Part shown: positions 8,591 through 63,606 of the stretch, one piece after another | Layout of the letters: every line of letters begins with the position of its first letter | Position numbering within the stretch: position 1 is the first letter of the stretch | The notes under the pieces: model-generated | Databases searched by the model: none | What the model was told of the DNA's origin: nothing | Seen by the model: the letters and a program-made list of their open reading frames with translations, nothing else | Assembly: GCA_023248535.1 (NCBI GenBank) | Contig: JAHFEJ010000003.1 | Span: 29,403-93,402, forward strand | Reading direction: 5' to 3' | Length of the DNA stretch: 64,000 nucleotides | Source: Nitrospinales bacterium | Lineage (GTDB): Bacteria; Nitrospinota_A; UBA7883; JACRGQ01 | Program-made: the position numbers and the translations under genes

Positions 8591-9316
8591 TCACGAGGTA
8601 AATTCGTCCAAAGTACCGTCACATTCAATGTCAAGTGCGTATTGATATTTATAAAAGGGCAATCCATAAAAAAAAGAATTTTCGCTTGCTACAAGTAAAG
8701 CAACAATATTCCCAAAAGTATCCATTATTGGAGCCCCACTGCATCCCCAATAATAATCCGGGCCATTATACTGAGCATTGCATTTAAAAATGTAATAGTC
8801 CTTATCTTCCTTGATGTAGTTCAGATCAATCTCAGTGTGCAGTTCAGCATTTTTTACACTTCCATCCAATTTGTTATTTCGTAGTCCTGCGAACCCATAT
8901 TTGTAATCTAACATAGGTTTTATATTGCAATTAAGGGGGGTGATCTTTCTTTGCGTTTCTTTCAAAATGCATCCTTCTTTGGATATCTCCTGATAGAAAG
9001 CTTGAACATCTTCAGCTATTATTTTAAACGTAAAGTCAACATCATCAACCTTCTTTTCATCCAGTTGAATTATTTTCAAATAGGTCATATTGCCCAAGGG
9101 AATAGTTAATGTCCCCCTTCCAGGAACAAATTTACTTTGAATAGACCATATTTCATTGGGCCTCAAAGCATGGAAAACAGAAAGAATCAGATTCTTTCCT
9201 TTATAAGACACCAAGCAACCTGACGCATAAGCAATTGGCAAATTTTCCGAATCAAGTTGAATTAGAGGAACGCTAGCATTTATTAGTATTGATCTCCATT
9301 CTATATTTTTGTCCAT
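8591..9316 (-). CDS. Hypothetical protein on an AT-rich islet. Possible chymotrypsin-fold serine peptidase.
   Basis: Codon usage and GC are far below the surrounding genes. GCSGAPI resembles the GDSGGP catalytic-serine motif. A candidate catalytic His lies in LSVFHAL. Confidence 0.5.
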   Translation of the reverse strand: MDKNIEWRSILINASVPLIQLDSENLPIAYASGCLVSYKGKNLILSVFHALRPNEIWSIQSKFVPGRGTLTIPLGNMTYLKIIQLDEKKVDDVDFTFKIIAEDVQAFYQEISKEGCILKETQRKITPLNCNIKPMLDYKYGFAGLRNNKLDGSVKNAELHTEIDLNYIKEDKDYYIFKCNAQYNGPDYYWGCSGAPIMDTFGNIVALLVASENSFFYGLPFYKYQYALDIECDGTLDEFTS

Positions 9317-9436
9317 ATACCCTTTCGGTTTAAAGCAATTTTTTTGTAATCATCTAAAGCTTAAATTAGCACATCCAGAAAATTATGGGAAATGGCTAAA
9401 ACACGTCAAAAGGCCACTGTTTTCACCCAGTGTCGA

Positions 9437-9870
9437 TGTTTGTCTTTGTTGGCGGGCACACTCACAATGGACTCGGCCACACTCGCGGCAACATCACGTT
9501 GCCGCTCGCGCGGCCCCCGGCGTTTTCCCGCCAAACATCCTGTTTGGCGTCACTCCCTTACCGGTCGCGCACGAAACCGCCGTTCGAGTCCTGGTGGCCG
9601 GCGCAATTTGGGATATGGGATGGAGCGAACTTGTTTGTTGGACGTGGTCAGAGGAAAAATGGTGGGCCCACACCCGAAGGACTCGGCCACTCTCGGGCTC
9701 GCATCACGCTCGCCCTCCATCGGCCCCGACTCGCTTCCTTGTCCCGCATCCATGCGGGCCAACACTCGCTTATCGCTCGTGTGCGGAAGCTCGCTTTCGA
9801 GTCCTGGGGGCCAGCGTAAAAGCGTGATTGGGGATGTAGCGGTCTTGATTGTGGGACATGGTCAGAGGAA
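9437..9870. repeat. Two degenerate tandem units of about 215 bp, each ending in gtggtcagaggaaaaatggtgggcccac. They carry direct and inverted fragments of the tRNA-Met 3' end.
   Basis: tggtgggcccac...ggactcgg occurs at 9657, and the authentic tRNA 3' end is at 9874. Inverted copies ttcgagtcctggtgg are at 9583 and 9797. Confidence 0.5.
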
Positions 9871-9873
9871 AAA

Positions 9874-9952
9874 TGGTGGGCCCACCAGGACTCGAACCTG
9901 GGACAGCCCGGTTATGAGCCGGGAGCTCTAACCAACTGAGCTATAGGCCCAC
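9874..9952 (-). tRNA. tRNA-Met (anticodon CAU), CCA-encoded.
   Basis: Reverse complement reads GTGGGCCTATAGCTCAGTTGGTTAGAGCTCCCGGCTCATAACCGGG...GGTTCGAGTCCTGGTGGGCCCACCA, a cloverleaf with a CAT anticodon. Confidence 0.9.
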
Positions 9953-9996
9953 ACAATAAAAAAGAGCCGCGCGCCGTTGGCTGGCGCGGCGGCTCT
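9953..9996 (-). terminator. Intrinsic terminator between rpoD and tRNA-Met.
   Basis: GC-rich hairpin agagccgcgcgcc/ggcgcggcggctct, followed on the minus strand by TTTTTTAT. Confidence 0.5.
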
Positions 9997-10002
9997 TGAC
10001 GT

Positions 10003-11721
<1,719 letters not shown>

Positions 11722-53700: not shown

Positions 53701-53787
53701 GCCGGAGTGGCGAAATTGGTAGACGCAGGGGACTCAAAATCCCCCGTAGGCGACTATGTGCCGGTTCGAGTCCGGCCTCCGGCACCA
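53701..53787 (+). tRNA. tRNA-Leu (anticodon CAA), class II with a long variable arm, CCA-encoded.
   Basis: GCCGGAGTGGCGAAATTGGTAGACGCAGGGGACTCAAAATCCCC...GGTTCGAGTCCGGCCTCCGGCACCA. Confidence 0.9.
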
Positions 53788-53952
53788 CTATTCCAAGGAT
53801 CATGAACCGGGCTTGAAGCGAGGCTCCGGCGCGACCGAAGAGGGAGCGCAACCGGACAGGGACGTCCGGTTAGGAGGCGAGCCGGCCAGGACGAGCCGAA
53901 GCGTGACGCGCAGGCGAGTGATGGCGAGTCCGGCCTCCGGCACCACTATTCC
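53768..53952. repeat. Perfect 27-bp direct repeat of the tRNA-Leu 3' end (gagtccggcctccggcaccactattcc), at 53768-53794 and 53926-53952. att-like.
   Basis: Exact repeat read directly from the sequence. A 131-bp GC-rich spacer lies between the copies. Confidence 0.6.
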
Positions 53953-54081
53953 TCTCGGCACCATTAAAAGTGGTTCGATAGGCTCATTCGAAAAAATGGG
54001 TGGAGGCCACTTCCGCTACAGGTCGGGAAATAATTCGGCAGTTTCCCAATCTTGTTTCCCAAAAAAGCGGAAAGCAGTAAT

Positions 54082-54119
54082 AAAAAAAGCCCCGTGGCCG
54101 AAGCACACGGGGCTTTTTG
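54082..54119. terminator. Bidirectional intrinsic terminator downstream of the RRM gene.
   Basis: aaaaaaa-gccccgtg-gccgaagca-cacggggc-ttttt. Confidence 0.55.
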
Positions 54120-54136
54120 AAAAAGCTCGTTATGGG

Positions 54137-54502
54137 TTAGTAGCGTCCGCCGCCGCCACCGCCGTAACCACCACCACCGCCGCCACGGCCGCCGCGGCCA
54201 CCGCCGCCGCCGCCGAAGCCGCCACGGCCACCGCCACCGCCACCGGTGCGGGGTTCTTGCGGTTTTGCCTCGGCCACGCGCAAGGCGCGCCCTTCAACAC
54301 TGACACCGTTGAGTTGGGCTATCGCCGCTTCCGATTCTTCATCGGTAGCCATTTCAACGAAACCGAACCCTTTGCAGCGATTGGTTTCGCGGTCAATGAT
54401 TACCTTTGCCGATTCCACCGTTCCCGCTTGCTCGAACTGTTCGCGCAGCGATTCGTCGGTTGTGGAATAAGGCAGGTTGCCCACATACAGTTTCTTACCC
54501 AT
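54137..54502 (-). CDS. Glycine-rich RRM-type RNA-binding protein.
   Basis: RNP2 LYVGNL, RNP1 KGFGFVEM, and a C-terminal RGG/GGG tail. Confidence 0.85.
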   Translation of the reverse strand: MGKKLYVGNLPYSTTDESLREQFEQAGTVESAKVIIDRETNRCKGFGFVEMATDEESEAAIAQLNGVSVEGRALRVAEAKPQEPRTGGGGGGRGGFGGGGGGRGGRGGGGGGYGGGGGGRY

Positions 54503-54721
54503 TAGAACTCCAAAAAAACACGTAACATAATTGACCCCGCCGACCGGAACTTAAGCCCACGCTTAATGGATCCCTAAATGCGGAGCATGACTAACGCTTA
54601 AATGCTAACACAATCCCCAAAAGTTGGAAAATTATATTTTTTATTTCCAGAAGGGTTGTACCGCATAAGGGTAAGGCCCCTATTTTGCGATGCTTGGATA
54701 ATCCTCTATTATGTGGATTAT

Positions 54722-55492: not shown

Positions 55493-55589
55493 CCGGCTTT
55501 CATGCTTTTCGTTCTTTTCAGCCAGAGGCGCCCATCCCCTCCAAATCCTCCAGCCGCTCCAAAAAACCGGAAAATACCCCCGCGGAAGG

Positions 55590-55630
55590 ATAAATTGTTT
55601 GGGCATGAATTGTCACAAAATTGTGAGATT
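55590..55630 (+). promoter_or_regulatory. Candidate operator upstream of the WYL regulator gene: three AATTGT repeats at helical spacing, including the inverted repeat TCACAA-aa-TTGTGA.
   Basis: taaATTGTttgggcatgaATTGTcacaaaATTGTgagatt. Confidence 0.35.
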
Positions 55631-55764
55631 TCAAAAATCCTAAATCCTAGGTTTCTTCTACCAAGACCGAAAAGAGCCATCTCCATTCATTGGGCTTGAC
55701 GAACCAGCATAAAGCGGCATCTGCGATATGTGCGATACGCAGAAAAAGGACGTAAAATGATTTC

Positions 55765-56778
55765 ATGAAAAAGGATTCACGGCCACTTTTAACGCCGAGC
55801 CAGAAACAGATAGCAATCATATTTAGACTTCTTGCTTCGCCTGAAGGCATTGCAGTTTCGGCACTCATGCGGGACTACGAATTATCCTATAGGACATTCA
55901 GAAATTATTTGACTCATTTTCAAAACATACCGGATTTGGCCGATGACTTGGGTGACCCGCTCGTCATGGAAGATATCCGAGAAGGCGTTAAATATCTTCG
56001 GCTGAAACTTTCCATGATAGACGGCTCAAAAACTTCAGAACAACGTGCGCTGGCATTTTTATCTGGGATTTTATTGGAATTCCTTGAAGGAACCACTTTT
56101 TATGAGTCGTTACAGCAATTGGGTCACATCCATTCAAGCGATGGCATGAGGATTTTAGGGGTCAAATATCTTGACAGAAAAATATATTCAAAATTGCTAC
56201 ATCCCAAAATTTACGCCGGCAAAAGCGAGATTTTGAAGAAATCTATTTCAGTAGTCTTAAATCAGCGAAAAATCGACGTTAAATACAAAAGCCGAACGTC
56301 TAAATCGTTAGAGATGATAAAGCAATTTAAGCCGTACACTGTGCTGCATTACAGGTCAGGTCTTTATCTGGTGGGGGAATGCACACGCCAAGAAATGGGA
56401 AAGATTATTTACTTGGCAATCGAGCGTATCGATGAGTTAAAGGTTTTAAAGGAATCTTTCCATTACCCTGGCAATTATTCTCCCCAAAAGCTTGTATCAG
56501 ATTCGTTCGGGATAATGAAAGGGGGCAAAAGTTTCCATGTAGAGCTATTGTTCAAAAAGAACGTTGCGGAGCAAATCAAGGAGAGGCTCTGGCATAAAAC
56601 TCAAAAGATAGTCCAACTAAAAAACAAAGAGATTAAGCTCACCTTTACCGTATCTTCTCTTGACGAAGTGATTAATTGGGTGTTGAGCTACGGTGATAAC
56701 GTCAAAGTGCTGCAACCTGTCGAATTAAAGAATCTGGCGCTGAAGAGAGCACAGGAATTCCTCTTTCATAATTCTTAA
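55765..56778 (+). CDS. HTH-WYL-WCX transcriptional regulator (BrxR/CapW-like).
   Basis: N-terminal wHTH (IAVSALMRDYELSYRTFRNYL), central WYL-like motif LHYRSGLYLVGEC, and a C-terminal extension. Low GC. Confidence 0.65.
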   Translation: MKKDSRPLLTPSQKQIAIIFRLLASPEGIAVSALMRDYELSYRTFRNYLTHFQNIPDLADDLGDPLVMEDIREGVKYLRLKLSMIDGSKTSEQRALAFLSGILLEFLEGTTFYESLQQLGHIHSSDGMRILGVKYLDRKIYSKLLHPKIYAGKSEILKKSISVVLNQRKIDVKYKSRTSKSLEMIKQFKPYTVLHYRSGLYLVGECTRQEMGKIIYLAIERIDELKVLKESFHYPGNYSPQKLVSDSFGIMKGGKSFHVELLFKKNVAEQIKERLWHKTQKIVQLKNKEIKLTFTVSSLDEVINWVLSYGDNVKVLQPVELKNLALKRAQEFLFHNS

Positions 56779-56851
56779 ATATTTCTCTTTGTCCCTCAAT
56801 TAATTTGAAAAGTGAAAAATTCCTGCAAGTAAATATGGTTTATATAGACCA

Positions 56852-57721
56852 ATGGAATCTTACAATAAATATCTGCCTGATGTCAGTGCAGTCGTGCATG
56901 AAGCAATCAAGCATTTAGAAATGCTCTACCATCGAAAAGAATCAATCCACGGCATTCCAACGGGTTTTAAAAAGCTAGATAAAATGACGGCTGGATTTCA
57001 GGGTGGAGACCTCATCGTCTTCGCGGGCCTTCCCTCAACGGGGAAGAGTCTCATTTGCAGTAACATGGCGGAACATATGGCCGTATATGAAGCAAGGAGT
57101 GTTGCCTATTTTTCATTAGAAATGAGCAGCATTCAGGTGGTGTTACGTATGATTTCATCTATGGCCGCTATCGATATCCTGAAAATGAGAGCCGGTTTCC
57201 TGTCGGAAGACGATTGGTGCAAGATAAAAGCTGCGGGCAACAGTCTCACGGCTTCAAAAATCCATTTTGATGACGCACCAGCCCAGACCGTGTATGACAT
57301 TCGTTGGAAGGCAATTCTTAGGAAGGCTAAAGCCGGGTTGGACATACTATTTATTGATGACCTTGGACTTATTATGGAGCATCGCCAACCCGAAAATCGT
57401 ACACATGAAATTCGAGAAATCATCCGTTGCCTTAAAGATCTAGCACGCGAATTAAATATTCCAGTCGTTGTCACGTCAAAGCTCATGAAAAAAGGTAAAG
57501 GCCCCCTTGGCAAGCAGCCTCAAGAGGTCAATTTTGGTGAGTTCGGAGCCATTGAGCAGTTCGCTGATCTGGTGTGCCTTGTTAATCGCAAAATATATGA
57601 TTTCATCGAAGAAGCAGGGAGTTCATCAGCAGAGATCATTATTGTTAAGCATCGTAATGGCCCGATAGGCAAAATCCCTTTGGTTTTTTCAAATAGCTTT
57701 ATCAGATTTGATAACCCGTAA
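56852..57721 (+). CDS. Stand-alone DnaB-C-terminal-like RecA-fold ATPase (no N-terminal helicase or primase-binding domain).
   Basis: Walker A GLPSTGKS, SLEMS, Walker B ILFIDDLGLI and an arginine-finger region, as in the DnaB/KaiC/RadA ATPase core. Only 289 aa. Confidence 0.65.
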   Translation: MESYNKYLPDVSAVVHEAIKHLEMLYHRKESIHGIPTGFKKLDKMTAGFQGGDLIVFAGLPSTGKSLICSNMAEHMAVYEARSVAYFSLEMSSIQVVLRMISSMAAIDILKMRAGFLSEDDWCKIKAAGNSLTASKIHFDDAPAQTVYDIRWKAILRKAKAGLDILFIDDLGLIMEHRQPENRTHEIREIIRCLKDLARELNIPVVVTSKLMKKGKGPLGKQPQEVNFGEFGAIEQFADLVCLVNRKIYDFIEEAGSSSAEIIIVKHRNGPIGKIPLVFSNSFIRFDNP

Positions 57722-57786
57722 TATGCGATGCCTGATATTGAAAGAAAGATGTTGAGAAGGACGGTGAGAACCCTAATAGAAAAAGA

Positions 57787-58788
57787 GTGGATAATATGAA
57801 GGGGATTGCAAATAATCCAGTCATTTCCGGTGAAACACTCAATACGAGTCCATGCTTCAGCTTTTTACGCGACACTGGTTCACTTCATGTTGATTTTAGT
57901 CCGTGGATTAGCCTTTTAATGCGCATCGGCCCGGCGGAAACGGAGTTTCAGGTTGAATGCCAATATGGCAGTGAGGTGTGGTTGCCAGAGGCGCCATACT
58001 TTGAGCCTAAACTGCCATTCCTCGACTTCAACGATCCTGCAATAAATAGTTTCTTGGATCGAATTGAAAAGCGCGATGTAGAGGCGTCAAAATCGTTCCC
58101 AGAATACCAGCTTACTTTTCTTAGAATATTATCAAGTGCACCTGAAATGCATCAGTTGCTGGATTTTCGGCTTTTGGCCGTGCTCATTGCAGAGGCCGTA
58201 GCTTCCGGGGAGGTCGATATGCAAGAACTTCCAGCAATATTAAGGAATGATCGAAAAGAAATTCTTATCCGCGTTGCGGGATGTGAAGAAACCGGGCAGG
58301 AAGCATTGAACATCTTAAATAAACTACAACTATCCAATCTCGGTTTGGGTAATAGAATGTGGTGCAATGACGGCAATTTGGCGGTAATAAAGCGGGCGTT
58401 GAAATCAAAAACCAGCGTGATGTCGCTTAACAGGTATCCAATAATCACACAGTCATTGTTACGGTTATCGCTTGATGCGCCAGAGCTGGTGTCTTCGCAA
58501 TTGATGAGAACGGAGATTGCCAATAATCCTAATGACATCGAGGAAACCATTTTGACGATACGGGCGGTGTTCGATCAAGCAAAGCGCATGAAAAGGGCGA
58601 AAATACAAAAAAATCAGTTAACGGTTAAGTATGTTCTGGGATATGCCTATGGGGGGTACTTCGTGTGCAGAGAGCAGGGAGATGACGGAAACGCTGATTT
58701 GATGATTAGGCTAATGGAGAGCATAGGCCTTAATTGGCCAAAAGATAAAGATTTGTTAGGTGAAGATGGTTATCGTGGCTTGATTTAA
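57787..58788 (+). CDS. Hypothetical protein (island gene 3).
   Basis: Long ORF with island-type codon usage. No recognisable motif. Confidence 0.45.
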   Translation: MDNMKGIANNPVISGETLNTSPCFSFLRDTGSLHVDFSPWISLLMRIGPAETEFQVECQYGSEVWLPEAPYFEPKLPFLDFNDPAINSFLDRIEKRDVEASKSFPEYQLTFLRILSSAPEMHQLLDFRLLAVLIAEAVASGEVDMQELPAILRNDRKEILIRVAGCEETGQEALNILNKLQLSNLGLGNRMWCNDGNLAVIKRALKSKTSVMSLNRYPIITQSLLRLSLDAPELVSSQLMRTEIANNPNDIEETILTIRAVFDQAKRMKRAKIQKNQLTVKYVLGYAYGGYFVCREQGDDGNADLMIRLMESIGLNWPKDKDLLGEDGYRGLI

Positions 58789-58870
58789 AGAGTGCTGGGA
58801 TTCGGTATAGGTTTGCCCTCCTTACGAATAAGTTGTATAAATAATCAACAATTAATGTTGGGGAGATTTC

Positions 58871-59839
58871 ATGAAAAGAGGCTTGTCTCCAGAGTTTGCC
58901 AAGCAGTTGGAAGATAAGGGAGGTCTTCTAAACAAGTTCCTGGAAGTGGTCAAGAAGGATTCCACTCTTTGTCTTGAGATTCGGAACAATGCCATAAATG
59001 TTTACTATAGAGGTGGAAGCTTATTCAAAATTGAAGATAAAAAAAATGGATTTGAATATGCCATTTCATTCAATAAAAAATATTTCATGGGAAATTCTCA
59101 TAGTGATTTGCCCCAAATTATAAAAGCGGAAAATGACGTTGCATCGGAATGGATAAGAAAGGTGCCCGATCTGAAAAATGCAATGGATTTATTTTTTGGA
59201 AAGCATCCTAAAAATGAACGCGAATTTCAGCAGCTTATTTTAAGGGAAAACAACCAAGGAGCGTTGGGGCGAAGCACGGACTATTTTATTTGTGACATAG
59301 AATATGACAATCGGGAAGGTGCTCGATTTGACCTGATAGCGGTCAAGTGGCCAAGCACACCAAAGGACAGAAAAAATGCCAAGTACCTTAGATTGGCCTT
59401 TATTGAGAAAAAATATTTAGACGGCGCTTTGAGGAGTGCATCAACACCAGCCAAAATGGAAAGGCCAGGAATATCGAAACACTTACGCGACATGCGCGAA
59501 TACCTTAAGCCAAGCACCGTCGAGAATTTAAAAAAGGAAATGAAAGAAGTAGTCAACCTGAAGAAGAAATTAGGATTGATTAACATTCCCGATGAAATTG
59601 AAAGCTTCAGCAATGAAAAACCCGAATTTATTCTATTATTGGCAAACCACGATCCTGCCTCGAAAATATTAATTGAGGAACTCCGCAAAATTGATGAAAA
59701 GAAATTATCTGACATGCCGTTTGATTTAAAATTCGCTGTGAGCAATTTTATGGGTTACGGATTATTCAATGAGTGTATATACACTTTGAGCGAATTTAAG
59801 GCTCGATTTGCAAAGCAAATATATTCGGGGCCCGCCTAA
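58871..59839 (+). CDS. Hypothetical protein (island gene 4). Possible PD-(D/E)xK-like nuclease core.
   Basis: YFICDIEYD...RFDLIAVKW has the hydrophobic-strand-D ... hydrophobic-strand-xK spacing. This is weak evidence. Confidence 0.45.
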   Translation: MKRGLSPEFAKQLEDKGGLLNKFLEVVKKDSTLCLEIRNNAINVYYRGGSLFKIEDKKNGFEYAISFNKKYFMGNSHSDLPQIIKAENDVASEWIRKVPDLKNAMDLFFGKHPKNEREFQQLILRENNQGALGRSTDYFICDIEYDNREGARFDLIAVKWPSTPKDRKNAKYLRLAFIEKKYLDGALRSASTPAKMERPGISKHLRDMREYLKPSTVENLKKEMKEVVNLKKKLGLINIPDEIESFSNEKPEFILLLANHDPASKILIEELRKIDEKKLSDMPFDLKFAVSNFMGYGLFNECIYTLSEFKARFAKQIYSGPA

Positions 59840-59853
59840 GCGCCTTTAGGAAA

Positions 59854-61095
59854 ATGAATAACAATGTGAAGGTGGTAATTCACCGTGGGTCTCATGAAAT
59901 TGGGGGAACATGCATATCCATTACTACTCCCAAAACAAAACTGCTTCTTGATGCTGGAATGCCGCTTTCTGATGCCAGCGTCGGGATTGATATAAACTCC
60001 ATCAAGCCCGATGCGGTTTTTATAAGTCACCCGCACACCGATCATTTTGGAATGATGGAGACAGTTGATCCATCCATTCCAGTATATATGGGTCAGTTAA
60101 GCAAGAAGTTGATCGACTCGACAAGGATGTTCATTCGGAAAAGGCCCCTCATTAATAAAACTGTCATTTTTAAGCCGGGGGAAACAATTGTCGTTAATAA
60201 TGACATTCATGTCACCCCGCATCTTGTTGACCACTCCTCCGCCGAATCTTTTGCCTTTGAAATTGAGGCCGATGGAAAACGTCTTTTTTATAGCGGCGAC
60301 TTCAGGGGACATGGGAACAAAGGCCAGCTTTTTGAGCAGATGTTGAAAAATCCTCCTAAAAATATTGATGTGATGTTTATGGAAGGTACATGCATCCAGA
60401 GGAGTAACGACATCTTCCCAACTGAACATTCCGTGTTTAAAGTGATATTGGAAGTGCTGGAAGGACAGGCCAATATTTCCTTTTTGATTTCCTCCGCCCA
60501 AAACATAGATCGCTTAGTATGGGCACATCATGCGTGTCAGGATGCCGGTAAAATCATGGTGATTGATTTGTATATGGCATGGGTTTTGGAAGCCCTTTCT
60601 TCTGTTTCAGATAAAACACCCACCATGGCCAGCCCAAACGTTAAAGTCTTTATAGATTTCAACTTCTATAGCGCATTAAATAACAACCGCCTGGCCTATA
60701 ACGATTTCATACACCGGGCATTCCAGAAAAGGGTCAAAGAAGAGCAATTGCGGGCAAATCCTGCTGGATACCTATACTGTTCCAGAATTTCCGGATGCAG
60801 AAGGATGAAGGCCTTTGCCAAGCATGGAAAGATAAACATTATTTATTCCCAGTGGAGAGGATACCTTGAAAAGAAAGAGGATCGCAAAGTACAGGAGTTC
60901 AATGCTCTGGCAGAAAAGAACAATTATGTTTATGCGCATACGAGCGGACATGCGCCATTAAGCGATTTGAAAAAGCTGGCCCAAGCAATTAATCCCCAAA
61001 TGCTTGTCCCGATACATACTGAGCACGCAAGTGAATTTAAAAAGCATTTCAGCAATGTTTATGAGGCCACGGACAACTTTGGTTTTGAAGTGTAA
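59854..61095 (+). CDS. Metallo-beta-lactamase-fold beta-CASP-family nuclease (RNase J/CPSF73-like architecture).
   Basis: MBL motifs LLDAG, HPHTDH, H in VTPHLVDH, and SGDFRG. beta-CASP motif A-like MEGTC and motif C HTSGHA. Confidence 0.65.
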   Translation: MNNNVKVVIHRGSHEIGGTCISITTPKTKLLLDAGMPLSDASVGIDINSIKPDAVFISHPHTDHFGMMETVDPSIPVYMGQLSKKLIDSTRMFIRKRPLINKTVIFKPGETIVVNNDIHVTPHLVDHSSAESFAFEIEADGKRLFYSGDFRGHGNKGQLFEQMLKNPPKNIDVMFMEGTCIQRSNDIFPTEHSVFKVILEVLEGQANISFLISSAQNIDRLVWAHHACQDAGKIMVIDLYMAWVLEALSSVSDKTPTMASPNVKVFIDFNFYSALNNNRLAYNDFIHRAFQKRVKEEQLRANPAGYLYCSRISGCRRMKAFAKHGKINIIYSQWRGYLEKKEDRKVQEFNALAEKNNYVYAHTSGHAPLSDLKKLAQAINPQMLVPIHTEHASEFKKHFSNVYEATDNFGFEV

Positions 61096-61121
61096 GCTGG
61101 CCATTAAGATTCGGAGGGTAA

Positions 61122-61604
61122 ATGAAAAAAGACACGGCAAAAAAACTCAAGATGGTCATTGAGGGAATTGCCCAAAAAATTGAGCGCCATAAAAAACTGG
61201 TTGCTGGCGGGTGTCCAGCTGTGGGCATTTTCTGGTTTCTTAAAAAGAAGTCTGGACGGCTTGAGATGTATGCACCCGGAACTCCTGGGATTCCCTATAA
61301 ACTGGGCGAAGACGATGGGGAGTTTATTAACTACCCCGTTAGCCACTACCATGAATGGCGTGACATGAAAGTAATGTTCAAGAAGAATGTGAAGAACCGT
61401 ATTTATCCTGAACCATTTGATGCCTACATAGACAAAGAATATGATGACGCTCCACGCGGGAGGATTGTTTATTCAAAGTTGAATAAGAAATTCTACGTTC
61501 ATGTGACAAAATCTCTTATGAAGCCACGAATCAAAACGCTTATTTGCAAGGAATTCAGACTACCGGCAAACACAGTCTTCATGAATGATGAGCATTATGG
61601 CTAG
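61122..61604 (+). CDS. Hypothetical small protein (island gene 6).
   Basis: ORF with island codon usage, 27 bp after the beta-CASP gene. Confidence 0.45.
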   Translation: MKKDTAKKLKMVIEGIAQKIERHKKLVAGGCPAVGIFWFLKKKSGRLEMYAPGTPGIPYKLGEDDGEFINYPVSHYHEWRDMKVMFKKNVKNRIYPEPFDAYIDKEYDDAPRGRIVYSKLNKKFYVHVTKSLMKPRIKTLICKEFRLPANTVFMNDEHYG

Positions 61605-61794
61605 GGTGTAGGGCCGATCAATTTCCCGCCGTTTTCGTGGCTTTTGAGGTCGTGATTATCATTTTTCAAGATCAGCTAAGGCAAGAAGTCGGTATAAGTT
61701 ACCTAAATATAATTGTTTATGCTTCACGCGGAATGCCTCTCCCGCGGAAAGTGCGGTATACTCAAAGTGCACTACCGAAAGGAGCCGATCGCAA

Positions 61795-63606
61795 ATGCAA
61801 AACATACCGATTGCCGCGAAAAAAAATCCGTTCACCCTCATCGGCGACCAGAAAATCATCATCGACTACGCCGCCATTTACTGCCGCACGCCGCAGGAAT
61901 TGCTGAAGAGCACGCTCTTCCTCGAAATACTTACCCGGTTCATCCGCCGCATCGAGGAAAAGCGGACCCCCGGCTACCTCTTTCTGCGCGAACGCCGCCC
62001 GGATCTGAAACCGGAGGCGATCCCCGATTTTGTGCTGCGGCTGCTCCGCCTGCTGGTGGGACACAGCGCGGAAGAGATCATCGCGCTGAACCCCGATTAC
62101 GGGAGCGTGCTGAACGTGGGAAACGACCGCGAATGGATATACGAGCTGCGGCGCGACCTGTACAACTACTGGCGGCGCATCGAGCGGTACATCTTCCTTG
62201 AGATGCCGCACGGCTCCGGCCAGAAGTCGATCGACATCTATCACGACCAGTTCATGAGCGGCTGCGAGGACCTGCGCGCCCTCATCCTGCGCACGAACCG
62301 CCTCATCGGCGAGCACCTCTCCGGCAAAGACCCCAAGGTCTACCGCCAGCTCCCCGCCGGGGCGAACATGGCGATGCTGCTGGAGCGGATCGACTGGAAA
62401 TGCCCGTCGTTCCTGCAGGCGTTCCGGGACGTGGAGTTCATCCGCATCACGCTCATCGAGCCGCCGCTGATCCTCTACTCGAAATCCAACACGCGCAAGG
62501 GGACGTTTCTGGAGATACCCGGCCCCCACGGCCCAATCACGGTGGACCCTTCCGAGTGGTTCTGTTTTCCCGCCAAGGTGGGCGAGCTGACCGCGTTTAT
62601 CTTTTTCCATCTCGACTACATCGCGCAGGCGCTCTCGTTGTCGAACCTGTTCGAGCTGGCGGAATACGACGACATCAACGGCAAGACGCCCGACCTGGCG
62701 GTGCTGTTCGGCGTGCCGGGGGAGGGGATGAAGGAGTACACCGAATTTTTCGAGGACCGCCAAAGCGGCATCATCACCGGCATGGTGAAGCGCAGCGCCG
62801 ATGTCGGCTACTTCGGCTACTTCAAGAAGATGACGCTGACGCTGCACAACGTGGCGATGCTGAACCGGGGCCGCCTGCCGCTGCACGGCGCGATGGTGCA
62901 CATCAAGCTGAAGGCGGGGGGTTACGCCAACATCGTCCTCGTGGGGGATTCCGGCGCGGGCAAGAGCGAAACGCTGGAGGCGTTGCGCACCATCGCCGAC
63001 GAATATTTCAGCGACATCAAGGTGATCTTCGACGATATGGGGAGCCTCGCCATCAAGGAGGACGGCCGCGTACACGGCTACGGCACCGAGATCGGCGCAT
63101 TCGTCCGGCTGGACGACCTCCACCCGAAATACGCCTACGAGGAAGTGGACCGCTCCATCTTCATCAACCCCGACCGGAAGAACGCCCGGCTCATCATGCC
63201 GATAACCGCCTACCACCACGTGGTGATGGGCTACCCGGTGGATATGCTGTTCTACGCCAACAACTACGAGCACCTGGGCGACGACAAACCGGCGGTGGAG
63301 TTTTTCAGCCGCGCGGATGAGGCGCTGCAGGTGTTCCGCGACGGCTCGCGCCTGGCCAAGGGAACCACCGACGAGAAGGGGCTGGTCCGCACCTACTTCG
63401 CCAATCCGTTCGGCGCGCAGCAGCGCGAGGCGAAGCACGAGAAGGTGGCGGCGGCGGTCTTTGCGCGGATGTTCGAGACCGGCGTGAAGGTCGGGCAGGT
63501 GCGCACGCGTCTCGGCATTCCCGGCTTCGAGCAGGAGGGGCCGAAAGCGGTGGCGGAAAAACTTTACGAGGTACTGAAGGAACTGGCCAAACGGCCCGGA
63601 CGCTGA
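61795..63606 (+). CDS. Large protein with a C-terminal HPr-kinase-like P-loop domain (hypothetical kinase).
   Basis: LVGDSGAGKSETLEAL matches the HprK/PEPCK-type Walker A (GDSGxGKSE). The N-terminal 350 aa are unassigned. Confidence 0.5.
   Translation: MQNIPIAAKKNPFTLIGDQKIIIDYAAIYCRTPQELLKSTLFLEILTRFIRRIEEKRTPGYLFLRERRPDLKPEAIPDFVLRLLRLLVGHSAEEIIALNPDYGSVLNVGNDREWIYELRRDLYNYWRRIERYIFLEMPHGSGQKSIDIYHDQFMSGCEDLRALILRTNRLIGEHLSGKDPKVYRQLPAGANMAMLLERIDWKCPSFLQAFRDVEFIRITLIEPPLILYSKSNTRKGTFLEIPGPHGPITVDPSEWFCFPAKVGELTAFIFFHLDYIAQALSLSNLFELAEYDDINGKTPDLAVLFGVPGEGMKEYTEFFEDRQSGIITGMVKRSADVGYFGYFKKMTLTLHNVAMLNRGRLPLHGAMVHIKLKAGGYANIVLVGDSGAGKSETLEALRTIADEYFSDIKVIFDDMGSLAIKEDGRVHGYGTEIGAFVRLDDLHPKYAYEEVDRSIFINPDRKNARLIMPITAYHHVVMGYPVDMLFYANNYEHLGDDKPAVEFFSRADEALQVFRDGSRLAKGTTDEKGLVRTYFANPFGAQQREAKHEKVAAAVFARMFETGVKVGQVRTRLGIPGFEQEGPKAVAEKLYEVLKELAKRPGR

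Follow-up and report, generated by a model that had tools for sequence, protein, structure and literature searches.

Transcription regulators of the wHTH-WYL-WCX architecture include the BrxR/CapW-type repressors, found upstream of many kinds of defence system, BREX and CBASS among them, and the same architecture also controls DNA-damage regulons, as in DriD and PafBC. Among beta-CASP nucleases, a motif-C histidine together with an RMMBL domain is typical of the RNase J/CPSF branch and not of the SNM1/Artemis DNA-repair branch, and we know of no PD-(D/E)xK neighbour gene described for RNase J, aCPSF1/CPSF73, type VII CRISPR Cas14 or SNM1/Artemis. PD-(D/E)xK proteins themselves include the defence nucleases Shedu SduA, Hachiman HamA, Upx and Can2/Card1 and the repair nuclease NucS, which are the nearest kinds to one of the proteins described below. 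That WYL repressors control defence systems and sense ssDNA is documented in two reports (PMC11662680, PMC9122589).

A foreign six-gene block next to TauE

Within the window, by which we mean the whole 64,000-nucleotide stretch of Nitrospinales DNA that was analysed, six + strand ORFs occupy positions 55765 to 61604, with spacers from gene 1 to gene 6 of 73, 65, 82, 14 and 26 nt. GC content is 0.38-0.45 in this block versus 0.58-0.65 in its flanks, GC3 is 0.41-0.47 for block genes versus 0.69-0.88 for TauE, LeuA and a gene of 603 aa, and codon-frequency cosines reach 0.74-0.88 among the six genes versus 0.48-0.71 against host genes. All six ORFs are intact and all are uniformly foreign in composition, which bears out the original prediction of a low-GC block of six co-directional ORFs with altered codon usage. 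TauE is the upstream neighbour as described, whereas the downstream gene, which had been called HprK-like, is the 603-aa gene and has no Pfam family, only a sub-threshold AAA_16 match.

In three sibling genomes (L075-L077) TauE directly adjoins the 603-aa gene, leaving an empty site, and the block is therefore a discrete insertion of 6,144 bp (55588-61731, + strand) that the siblings lack, its junctions placed by blastn. Host homology to these siblings stops at 55587 on the left and resumes at 61732 on the right, and the left and right homologies both span the same 16 nt of the empty site. The left copy of the duplicated target, AAATACCCCCGCGGAA, lies at 55572-55587 and the right copy, AATGCCTCTCCCGCGG, at 61732-61747 (neither is stranded); this target duplication of about 16 nt is imperfect and visible only by comparison with the empty site, and it corrects the earlier statement that no flanking repeats are visible. 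No integrase was found within 10 kb on either side of the block, in keeping with what had been said of it, and its description as an islet rather than a prophage was upheld. Composition and empty site agree: the block is foreign DNA, a horizontally acquired islet that landed in the spacer between TauE and the 603-aa gene. Domain calls were also reproduced, with WYL and WCX in gene 1, DnaB_C in gene 2 and Lactamase_B_2 and RMMBL in gene 5, while genes 3, 4 and 6 gave no family match in Pfam, NCBIfam, PHROG or PADLOC; the combination, presented as unnamed, fits no system in PADLOC-DB v2.

The regulator, the DnaB-like protein and two near-orphans

A wHTH-WYL-WCX transcription regulator does stand first in the block, as had been proposed. 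Gene 1 (55765-56778, + strand, 337 aa) matches WCX (1.1e-14, 54.9 bits) and WYL (3.7e-6, 27.3 bits) in Pfam, two PADLOC WYL models (6.4e-25 and 2.8e-10, the second spanning residues 13-321) and WYL-domain proteins in the PDB (E about 1e-7). Upstream of it, a repeat search found an imperfect palindrome, TGAATTGTCACAA-AA-TTGTGAGATTTCA (55606-55633, unstranded), a candidate operator of gene 1 that overlaps a promoter-like site (TTGTCA-17-AAAAAT, 55610-55638). Such sites were no commoner than in shuffled sequence in the promoter scan, and the operator and promoter at 55606-55638 are therefore candidates only; a terminator-like hairpin with a T-run, 30 nt 3' of gene 6 (61635-61665, + strand), is likewise a consensus match from a terminator scan, so that all three control elements of the block are consensus-level predictions. 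Gene 1 resembles BrxR and CapW in its WYL and WCX domains, its place at the head of the block, an orientation shared with the cargo and the palindrome that overlaps a promoter-like site. It differs from them in that its cargo fits no known system, in that its binding, repression and ligand are only predicted, and in that a WYL gene stands beside gene-4 modules in just one of 38 other genome loci.

Gene 2 (56852-57721, + strand, 289 aa) consists of the RecA-like C-terminal domain of DnaB standing alone, and its helicase motifs are degenerate. DnaB_C is its only Pfam match (2.7e-70, 237 bits); against TIGR00665 it covers model positions 148-432 only and scores 261 bits for a cut-off of 385, and it falls below all NCBIfam cut-offs. 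The closest relatives found are full-length DnaB proteins of 450 aa, at no more than 42% identity. Over this domain gene 2 is 36-42% identical to the DnaB helicases, which include P1 Ban and phrog_243, a phage family made up of short DnaB_C-only proteins, and an alignment with P1 Ban and one full-length DnaB shows that it retains both Walker motifs, A and B. Unlike DnaB-family helicases, it has no N-terminal domain, and in the same alignment SQL has become SKL, the arginine finger DLRESG has become NFGEFG and EQDAD has become EQFAD. With that domain absent and SQL and the arginine finger replaced, gene 2 is, measured against DnaB, implausible as a functioning sensor ATPase.

Gene 3 (57787-58788, + strand, 333 aa) is related to PcfJ-domain proteins over their N-terminal ~230 residues. 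Only four distant relatives (P0130-P0133) were found among 1.84 billion representatives; all four carry PF14284 (PcfJ), which gene 3 does not, and alignment with them shows the PcfJ core (PPL.GN...HCV.SY) to be deleted. PcfJ proteins are annotated on plasmids and on one phage. Gene 6 (61122-61604, + strand, 160 aa) is an orphan ORF with the codon usage of the rest of the block; protein searches, which spanned 1.8-5.8 billion proteins for genes 3 and 6, returned no homologue of it but itself, and its single-sequence AF2 model was unusable (pLDDT 38.6).

Three of the block's genes have their best relatives on one metagenomic contig, L049, an uncharacterised, phage/plasmid-like sequence of equal GC (0.38-0.50) from the same sequencing project series, which carries DNA_pol_A, HNH and DUF2779. 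The relatives in question, of genes 1, 3 and 5 (31%, 30% and 45%, the last with E 4e-121), lie there within 5 kb of one another, with a WYL-WCX gene directly upstream of an MBL operon that lies beside a PcfJ-like gene. Its gene order and orientation differ from those of the block, however, and it lacks homologues of genes 2, 4 and 6, in whose place stand uncharacterised proteins of 116 and 272 aa.

A recurrent pair of predicted nucleases

Both nucleases proposed for the block, genes 4 and 5, were recovered as predicted nucleases, and neither matches any PADLOC model. Gene 4 (58871-59839, + strand, 322 aa) has no match in Pfam, PADLOC or the PDB and belongs to a large, previously unannotated family of predicted PD-(D/E)xK endonucleases that numbers more than 900 clusters; an N-terminal YjbR/YdhG/frataxin-like domain precedes its restriction-endonuclease-like core, the PD-(D/E)xK fold was confirmed and the catalytic residues are intact. 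None of 50,697 phage or 72,556 plasmid records contains it, and IMG/VR has it at two loci only, so it is not typical element backbone. Gene 5 (59854-61095, + strand, 413 aa) is a predicted metallo-beta-lactamase nuclease of the beta-CASP type that retains every metal ligand, matching Lactamase_B_2 (1.7e-14) and RMMBL (8.9e-7) in Pfam, EF2904 and RNase J in the PDB, and RNase J, aCPSF1 and Cas14 models in NCBIfam, each below its cut-off. Residues D33, H59, H61, D63, H64, H127, D149, E177, H362, H366 and H388 are at least 95% conserved among 25 family members. Gene 5 shares MBL motifs 1-4, E177, H362/H366, H388 and RMMBL with RNase J, aCPSF1/CPSF73, Cas14 and SNM1/Artemis, but it is shorter than these, lies far under every equivalog cut-off (62 bits against 400 for RNase J) and adjoins a PD-(D/E)xK partner of a kind not known from these enzymes.

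Across 38 genome loci with a gene-4 homologue, drawn from more than 10 phyla, gene 5 adjoins gene 4 in 23, with adjacent pairs in Planctomycetota, Omnitrophota, Myxococcota, Acidobacteriota, Bacteroidota, Firmicutes, Gemmatimonadota, CPR and others, and the same arrangement recurs at metagenome loci L003, L045 and L047 and on viral contig L051. Pairwise identities of gene 4 correlate with those of gene 5 (r=0.73, 206 pairs); judged by these comparisons, the two predicted nucleases move together and evolve in step in many phyla. In the other genome and metagenome loci gene 4 was never accompanied by a homologue of gene 2, 3 or 6. The expectation that the cargo would co-occur therefore stands for genes 4 and 5 and fails for genes 2, 3 and 6, the set of six is not conserved as one system, and the defensible candidate is the module of genes 4 and 5.

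Where the partner is not gene 5, gene 4 is found with REase-ARP, a DHH-like protein (twice), GIY-YIG, an N6/N4 methylase or NADAR, and in L034, the sole locus with a WYL neighbour, a WYL-WCX gene lies directly upstream of a REase-ARP and gene-4 pair. Decayed copies of gene 5, cut short or broken in two, occur in L024, L031, L032 and L041. Surroundings of gene 4 include HEPN-SNF2, SACS, PDC-S68 and an E2/ThiF/JAB gene in L001, a ResIII helicase, an ABC ATPase and a ParB-methylase in L047, and an SNF2 helicase with PglZ and a transposase in L078. These defence and mobile contexts, the partner swaps, the WYL-WCX genes upstream in L034 and L049 and the frequent decay together suggest defence. The neighbours in 22 loci are mostly of ordinary metabolism, the defence signal among them being modest, and L003, L045 and L080 sit amid housekeeping genes. 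The range of partners would suit DNA-end processing or repair as well, since it includes a 5'-3' exonuclease-type MBL, the DHH-like protein, a PNKP-like HAD phosphatase, NADAR and ARH.

Possible roles of the block

We read the block as a horizontally acquired, WYL-controlled mosaic operon whose functional core is the two-nuclease module of genes 4 and 5, probably defensive, and put this reading about evenly between right and wrong; a defence role for the module is plausible from sequence. The order of promoter and palindrome, WYL regulator, five further genes and terminator would make the block one operon-like insertion, in which gene 1 would repress transcription by binding the palindrome over the promoter and might, as has been demonstrated for CapW and DriD, let go on a nucleic-acid cue such as ssDNA from infection or damage. 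Gene 4 would then recognise and cut a target nucleic acid, perhaps via its YjbR-like domain, and gene 5 could resect or degrade from that break, as beta-CASP enzymes do, with the invading DNA or RNA destroyed or the infection aborted. Genes 2 and 3 would most simply be relics or exapted pieces of the phage or plasmid backbone that carried the module in.

A foreign WYL-headed islet with two predicted nucleases is thus what survives of the defence system originally proposed, and the six-gene unit is what does not. That all six genes form one such system, in which the DnaB_C-like ATPase and the unknown proteins would sense or adapt, the nucleases would be the effectors and the WYL repressor would be in control, seems to us very unlikely: the single inserted block of one composition, its short spacers, its single promoter-like and terminator-like sites, the neighbouring relatives of genes 1, 3 and 5 on L049 and the Walker motifs kept in gene 2 speak for it, and because the six came in as one and have a common codon usage, genes 2, 3 and 6 may have a role at this locus, but gene 4 occurs with none of these three in the 38 genome loci or the metagenome loci, genes 3 and 6 are near-orphans among 1.8-5.8 billion proteins, gene 2 has lost its arginine finger and SQL sensor, and gene 3 its family's conserved core. 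The truncated, motif-degenerate gene 2 and the internally deleted PcfJ-like gene 3 could also be read as signs that the block is a decaying replication or partition fragment of a phage, plasmid or satellite, without selected function and losing its genes, as could the plasmid and phage annotations of PcfJ proteins, the element-like L049, the missing integrase and the existence of phrog_243. We consider such decay unlikely, since every ORF is intact, no catalytic residue has been lost from genes 4 and 5, an identical 8.6 kb was found in a second sample and gene 4 is nearly missing from phage and plasmid collections.

A module for DNA-damage repair or tolerance, induced by a DriD/PafBC-type ssDNA-sensing WYL regulator, would make gene 4 an endonuclease specific for lesions or structures, in which an MmcQ/YjbR-like domain is joined to a NucS-like core, and gene 5 a 5'-3' beta-CASP resection nuclease. 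We hold this to be rather unlikely, as the pair is patchily distributed and missing from siblings within its own lineage, entered recently with foreign DNA, is found inside defence and mobile islands and is frequently pseudogenised, while H388 (motif C) and RMMBL in gene 5 point by the motif rule to RNase J/CPSF and not to SNM1/Artemis. Returning to the two-nuclease core, because genes 4 and 5 recur together across many phyla, the pair is a plausible new phage-defence or DNA-processing module.

An inserted low-GC block

The six forward-strand ORFs within 55765-61604 (genes 1 to 6; 337, 289, 333, 322, 413 and 160 aa, with successive spacers of 73, 65, 82, 14 and 26 nt) sit in a block of operon-like layout whose composition departs sharply from that of its surroundings. 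GC content in 500-nt windows is 0.38-0.45 over exactly this stretch of ORFs, compared with 0.58-0.65 outside, and third-position GC is 0.41-0.47 in genes 1 to 6 compared with 0.69-0.88 in TauE, LeuA and the downstream gene for a 603-aa protein. Codon-frequency cosines of 0.74-0.88 among the six genes and of 0.48-0.71 between them and host genes likewise bear out the original prediction, made from sequence, of a six-ORF low-GC block with altered codon usage.

Comparison with sibling genomes defined the edges of this block. Near-identical copies of the 603-aa protein occur in three other assemblies (L075-L077; L-numbers denote comparison loci or contigs), where TauE is followed directly by this gene across a spacer of ~140 nt. 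Searching this empty site with blastn revealed that homology on the left (85-86% identity) stops at 55587 and homology on the right (89%) restarts at 61732, with the two segments overlapping over one 16-nt stretch of the empty site in both the blastn result and the alignment. Because both flanks share these 16 nt, 55588-61731 (6,144 bp) is inserted DNA, flanked by an imperfect target duplication of ~16 nt (AAATACCCCCGCGGAA on the left, AATGCCTCTCCCGCGG on the right). The evidence for the duplication is this empty-site comparison, since a comparison of the block ends with each other, for direct or inverted terminal repeats, gave scores of 22 and 20, which were not significant against shuffles (15.7 +/- 2.3, maximum 29). 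A second sample yielded an identical assembled stretch of 8.6 kb, and the whole block had zero matches in the plasmids searched.

As scans with Pfam, NCBIfam, PHROG and PADLOC models reproduced the predicted domain calls (WYL and WCX in gene 1, DnaB_C only in gene 2, MBL and RMMBL in gene 5, no family in genes 3, 4 and 6), the original observation stands with two corrections. The block had been described as having neither integrase nor flanking repeats; the former holds, with no recombinase (integrase or transposase) inside the block or up to 10 kb away, while the ~16-nt duplication overturns the latter. A prophage or integrative element was rejected for the block given this absence of a recombinase, even though a target duplication is present. 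The second correction concerns the downstream gene (61795-63606), whose product had been called HprK-like but is not recognisably so and belongs to no Pfam family; it is conserved and kept in the sibling genomes, and its sole Pfam trace is a sub-threshold AAA_16 match at residues 373-403.

The last 21 nt of a tRNA-Leu(CAA) gene plus the next 7 nt (53767-53794) recur exactly 158 nt downstream (53925-53952), and this region (53701-53952) has the appearance of an att-like scar left when something integrated or excised at the tRNA in the past; as an island boundary the repeat was ruled out because it does not flank the island. Synteny with the siblings is lost upstream of 54084, a second rearrangement point ~1.5 kb from the island, beyond which the window carries tRNA-Leu, AccD and LeuA and the siblings carry a Na+/H+ exchanger, OmpA and BamE. 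The real gene at 54137-54502 (reverse strand) encodes an RRM_1 RNA-binding protein whose glycine-rich tail gives rise to a 9/12-nt GGC-type repeat family at 54138-54257, and a 249-aa forward-strand ORF at 53756-54505 is probably spurious. Another variable spot lies just past the right end of the window, ~4 kb beyond the island, where this strain has genes for a TPR/DUF2971 protein and a Y1 transposase-like protein (L043, 15882-18208) and a sibling genome has a WD40/TPR gene.

The regulator and the probable remains of a donor element

Gene 1 carries WYL (PF13280, 27.3 bits, cut-off 21.8) followed by WCX (PF25583, 54.9 bits, cut-off 23.9), the domain order of wHTH-WYL-WCX regulators of the BrxR/CapW/DriD type. 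At E<=0.1 its N-terminus has no HTH match in Pfam, the full-length PADLOC WYL model PDLC01457 aligns over residues 13-321, and its solved relatives are WYL-domain regulators (E~1e-7). A palindrome with 13-nt arms at 55606-55633 overlaps a promoter-like TTGTCA-17-AAAAAT and is a candidate operator; operator and promoter are candidates only, as promoter-like sites are no commoner here than in shuffles.

Gene 2 encodes only part of a DnaB helicase. It scores 261 bits against TIGR00665 (cut-off 385) and covers model positions 148-432, so that the N-terminal domain and linker of a full replicative helicase are missing, and the 73-nt spacer before it leaves no room for that domain. The DnaB hexamer ATPase needs, along with Walker A and B, the SQL motif (H3) and an arginine finger (DLRESG). 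Alignment to P1 Ban and to a full-length DnaB showed that gene 2 keeps Walker A/B but differs from DnaB helicases in H3 and the arginine finger, with SQL changed to SKL, DLRESG to NFGEFG (R to G) and EQDAD to EQFAD; judged by what is known of DnaB, these changes would leave it with neither gamma-phosphate sensor nor arginine finger. The nearest relatives in the collections searched were ordinary 450-aa DnaBs at <=42% identity, viral contigs yielded nothing, and metagenomes yielded full-length DnaBs only, also at <=42%.

Genes 3 and 6 have hardly any relatives. An exhaustive search of 1.84 billion representatives found four distant relatives of gene 3, all of them PcfJ proteins with the C-terminal PcfJ domain (PF14284), a domain that gene 3 lacks even at E<=10; the alignment revealed that the conserved core (PPL.GN...HCV.SY...RATLEI) is deleted in gene 3, which sets it apart from the PcfJ family. 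PcfJ-domain proteins are annotated on plasmids and a Shewanella phage. In a word-indexed set of 5.8 billion sequences, genes 3 and 6 matched only themselves, and none of the small ORFs flanking gene-4/5 pairs elsewhere resembles either of them. Gene 6 is an orphan whose AF2 model, built without an alignment, was unusable (pLDDT 38.6).

The nearest relative of gene 3 (protein P0130) is encoded on L049, a phage/plasmid-like contig. It belongs to a longer ENA contig of 65.9 kb, whose other products include a family-A DNA polymerase of 1,332 aa, an HNH protein, DUF2779 and an AAA ATPase. Divergent from P0130, on the opposite strand of L049 (1-5200), is an operon of a WYL-WCX regulator, a 116-aa protein, a beta-CASP MBL/RMMBL and a 272-aa protein, which supplied the best matches found to gene 1 (31% identity) and to gene 5 (45%, E 4e-121); MBLs adjoining gene 4 elsewhere are 30-38% identical to gene 5. 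The GC content of L049 (0.38-0.50) matches that of the island. This operon is a second uncharacterised WYL-headed MBL module, and further along L049 lie a 5'-nucleotidase, DUF2779, HNH and AAA ATPase genes. The 272-aa protein after its MBL was rejected as a divergent gene 4 (hhalign probability 0.4%). Together with the truncation of the DnaB and the loss of the PcfJ core from gene 3, the L049 relatives point to a phage- or plasmid-like donor for the block and suggest that genes 2 and 3 are leftovers of the donor's backbone.

A conserved pair with a constant nuclease

A faint PD-(D/E)xK-like core had originally been glimpsed in one of the cargo proteins, and gene 4 indeed has a restriction-endonuclease-like alpha/beta core with acidic residues and a (D/E)xK motif on consecutive strands. 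Its family comprises >900 clusters in which a YjbR-like domain is fused to the PD-(D/E)xK core, and it has no Pfam, PADLOC or PDB relative; the family profile found nothing among PDB sequences, nor did Foldseek find anything in the PDB at E<=1e-3. Gene 4 is not typical cargo of mobile elements: neither 50,697 phage records nor 72,556 plasmid records contained a match to it, and 2.9 million IMG/VR contigs gave only 2 loci. Some homologues are longer, with a conserved N-terminal extension of ~190-210 aa that has no Pfam match (P0016, P0018, P0045 and P0037, Desulfosporosinus-type; L005, 100-1311) or a different extension of 170 aa (P0023).

Gene 5 possesses all four MBL motifs (D33; H59-x-H61-x-D63-H64; H127; D149), each >=95% conserved, and scores 54.3 bits for Lactamase_B_2. 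Its conserved E177, H362/H366 and H388, together with RMMBL (29.3 bits, cut-off 21.6), fit beta-CASP motifs A, B and C as read from the sequence, and it distantly resembles RNase J, aCPSF1 and Cas14.

Scanning one genome per species for the gene-4 family returned 38 loci, drawn from Planctomycetota, Omnitrophota, Myxococcota, Acidobacteriota, Bacteroidota, Firmicutes, Gemmatimonadota, Binatia, Gammaproteobacteria, Peribacteria and others. Comparing all six proteins with these loci by tblastn revealed that in 23 of them a gene-5 homologue directly follows gene 4, often with an overlap of a few bases, whereas homologues of genes 2, 3 and 6 were never linked to gene 4 and a WYL gene adjoined it in L034 only. 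Given this linkage, the conserved unit is genes 4 and 5. The pair was also found in metagenome loci (L003, L045/46, L047) and a viral contig (L051), and pairwise gene-4 identities correlate with those of gene 5 (Pearson 0.73; 206 pairs from 21 loci), although only the trend counts, as the pairs are not independent. Small genes flanking the pair are unconserved except among close relatives, and the small upstream ORFs in high-GC gene-4/5 loci look mostly spurious. Co-occurrence across unrelated genomes, the mark of a conserved multi-gene defence system, therefore fails for the six-gene set and holds for this pair.

Where gene 5 is missing, gene 4 adjoins other enzymes: REase-ARP/PDDEXK_13 in L011-L013 and L034 (about 8930-10900), a following DHH-motif protein in L001 and L078 (the two being 73% identical), a GIY-YIG protein in L026, an N6/N4 methyltransferase in L027 (8990-10936), NADAR in L079 (7547-8954) and, assigned by visible sequence motifs, a T5orf172-like protein in L016. 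Gene 4 is thus the constant element of a partner-swapping arrangement. Just upstream in L078, inside a SNF2/PglZ region, lie an ADP-ribosylglycohydrolase (ARH) and a NucS-like protein. Small HAD phosphatases occur beside or near the gene-4/5 pair in L047 (9585-10004), L039 (9567-9986), L015 (12178-12513) and L028 (8296-8601), the one in L047 being closest to the PNKP phosphatase domain, below the Pfam cut-off.

Immunity, repair or relic

We consider it very probable that the block is a mosaic insertion whose conserved core is genes 4 and 5; that this core is defensive has a chance close to, or a little short of, even. The best composite explanation, a mosaic insertion with a defensive gene 4-5 core, we hold to be evenly balanced. 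Were it correct, and going by what is known of these families, WYL-mediated repression would be released by ssDNA, gene 4 would cut endonucleolytically and gene 5 would process exo- or endonucleolytically.

Several loci place gene 4 in defensive company, including HEPN-SNF2, SACS, PDC-S68 (E 1.9e-226) and an E2/ThiF/JAB gene in L001, a ResIII helicase, ABC ATPase and ParB-methylase in L047, and a SNF2 helicase, PglZ and a transposase in L078. The patchy distribution of the gene-4/5 module, which is absent from the sibling genomes, the swapping of partners, the WYL gene heading two related modules (L034, L049) and the decayed copies in L024, L031, L032 and L041 argue in the same direction. Against defence, the loci in L003, L045 and L080 are embedded in ordinary metabolism genes, and 130 pooled neighbors from 22 loci carry only a modest defence or mobile-element signal (methylases x4, WYL x2, REase-ARP x2, HEC-05, mad2 and phage tail genes). 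No PADLOC model of a defence system matched either: in PADLOC-DB v2.0.0, genes 3-6 had no match at E<=0.1 and gene 2 had only a weak one to mad8 (1.3e-8), and MADS membership was rejected on the grounds of generic RecA-like similarity with no other mad genes. This agrees with the original view that the combination corresponds to no named defence system. Nuclease islets with a WYL gene at their head are a familiar arrangement; the gene families and their pairing are described neither in the family libraries nor in the literature searched, where no account of the pair was found.

The same partner list of exonuclease-type MBL, DHH-like protein, PNKP-like phosphatase, NADAR and ARH also suits the processing of DNA ends or lesions, and WYL regulators are described as driving damage regulons as well as defence systems (PMC11662680, PMC9122589, PMC9186387); set against the defence-associated neighbors, a DNA-repair module in place of immunity is an improbable reading of the pair. 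Genes 4 and 5, predicted nucleases, have the folds of their families and intact catalytic residues, and genes 2 and 3 are the likely relics, and we give a somewhat smaller chance to the whole block being a functionless relic of a mobile element. A true six-gene system, which the tidy operon-like layout had suggested, dissolves on comparison of loci and is the least probable of these readings.

Returning to a defensive gene 4-5 core, a broader version of it is tentative and on balance unlikely, though less so than repair: the gene-4 family would be the constant part of a widespread, undescribed partner-swapping immune system, its second component usually the beta-CASP nuclease but replaceable by REase-ARP, a DHH-like, GIY-YIG or methylase protein, or a de-ADP-ribosylating NADAR/ARH, and the copy in the window would be a WYL-regulated form acquired from a mobile element. 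If true, this would be a hint that the nucleic acid recognised is modified, possibly by ADP-ribosylation, and the NADAR/ARH links would tie nuclease defence to the chemistry of ADP-ribose.

For annotation, the lesson is that a neat operon with a WYL gene at its head can turn out to be a mosaic, part conserved module and the rest degraded mobile-element cargo. Partner swapping offers a natural experiment in how a constant nuclease couples to different second enzymes, in a family spread over at least 10 phyla that include the poorly studied Omnitrophota, Planctomycetota, Myxococcota and CPR. If genes 4 and 5 protect against phages or plasmids, they would form a compact system of two nucleases, based on a protein family currently recognised by none of the annotation resources.
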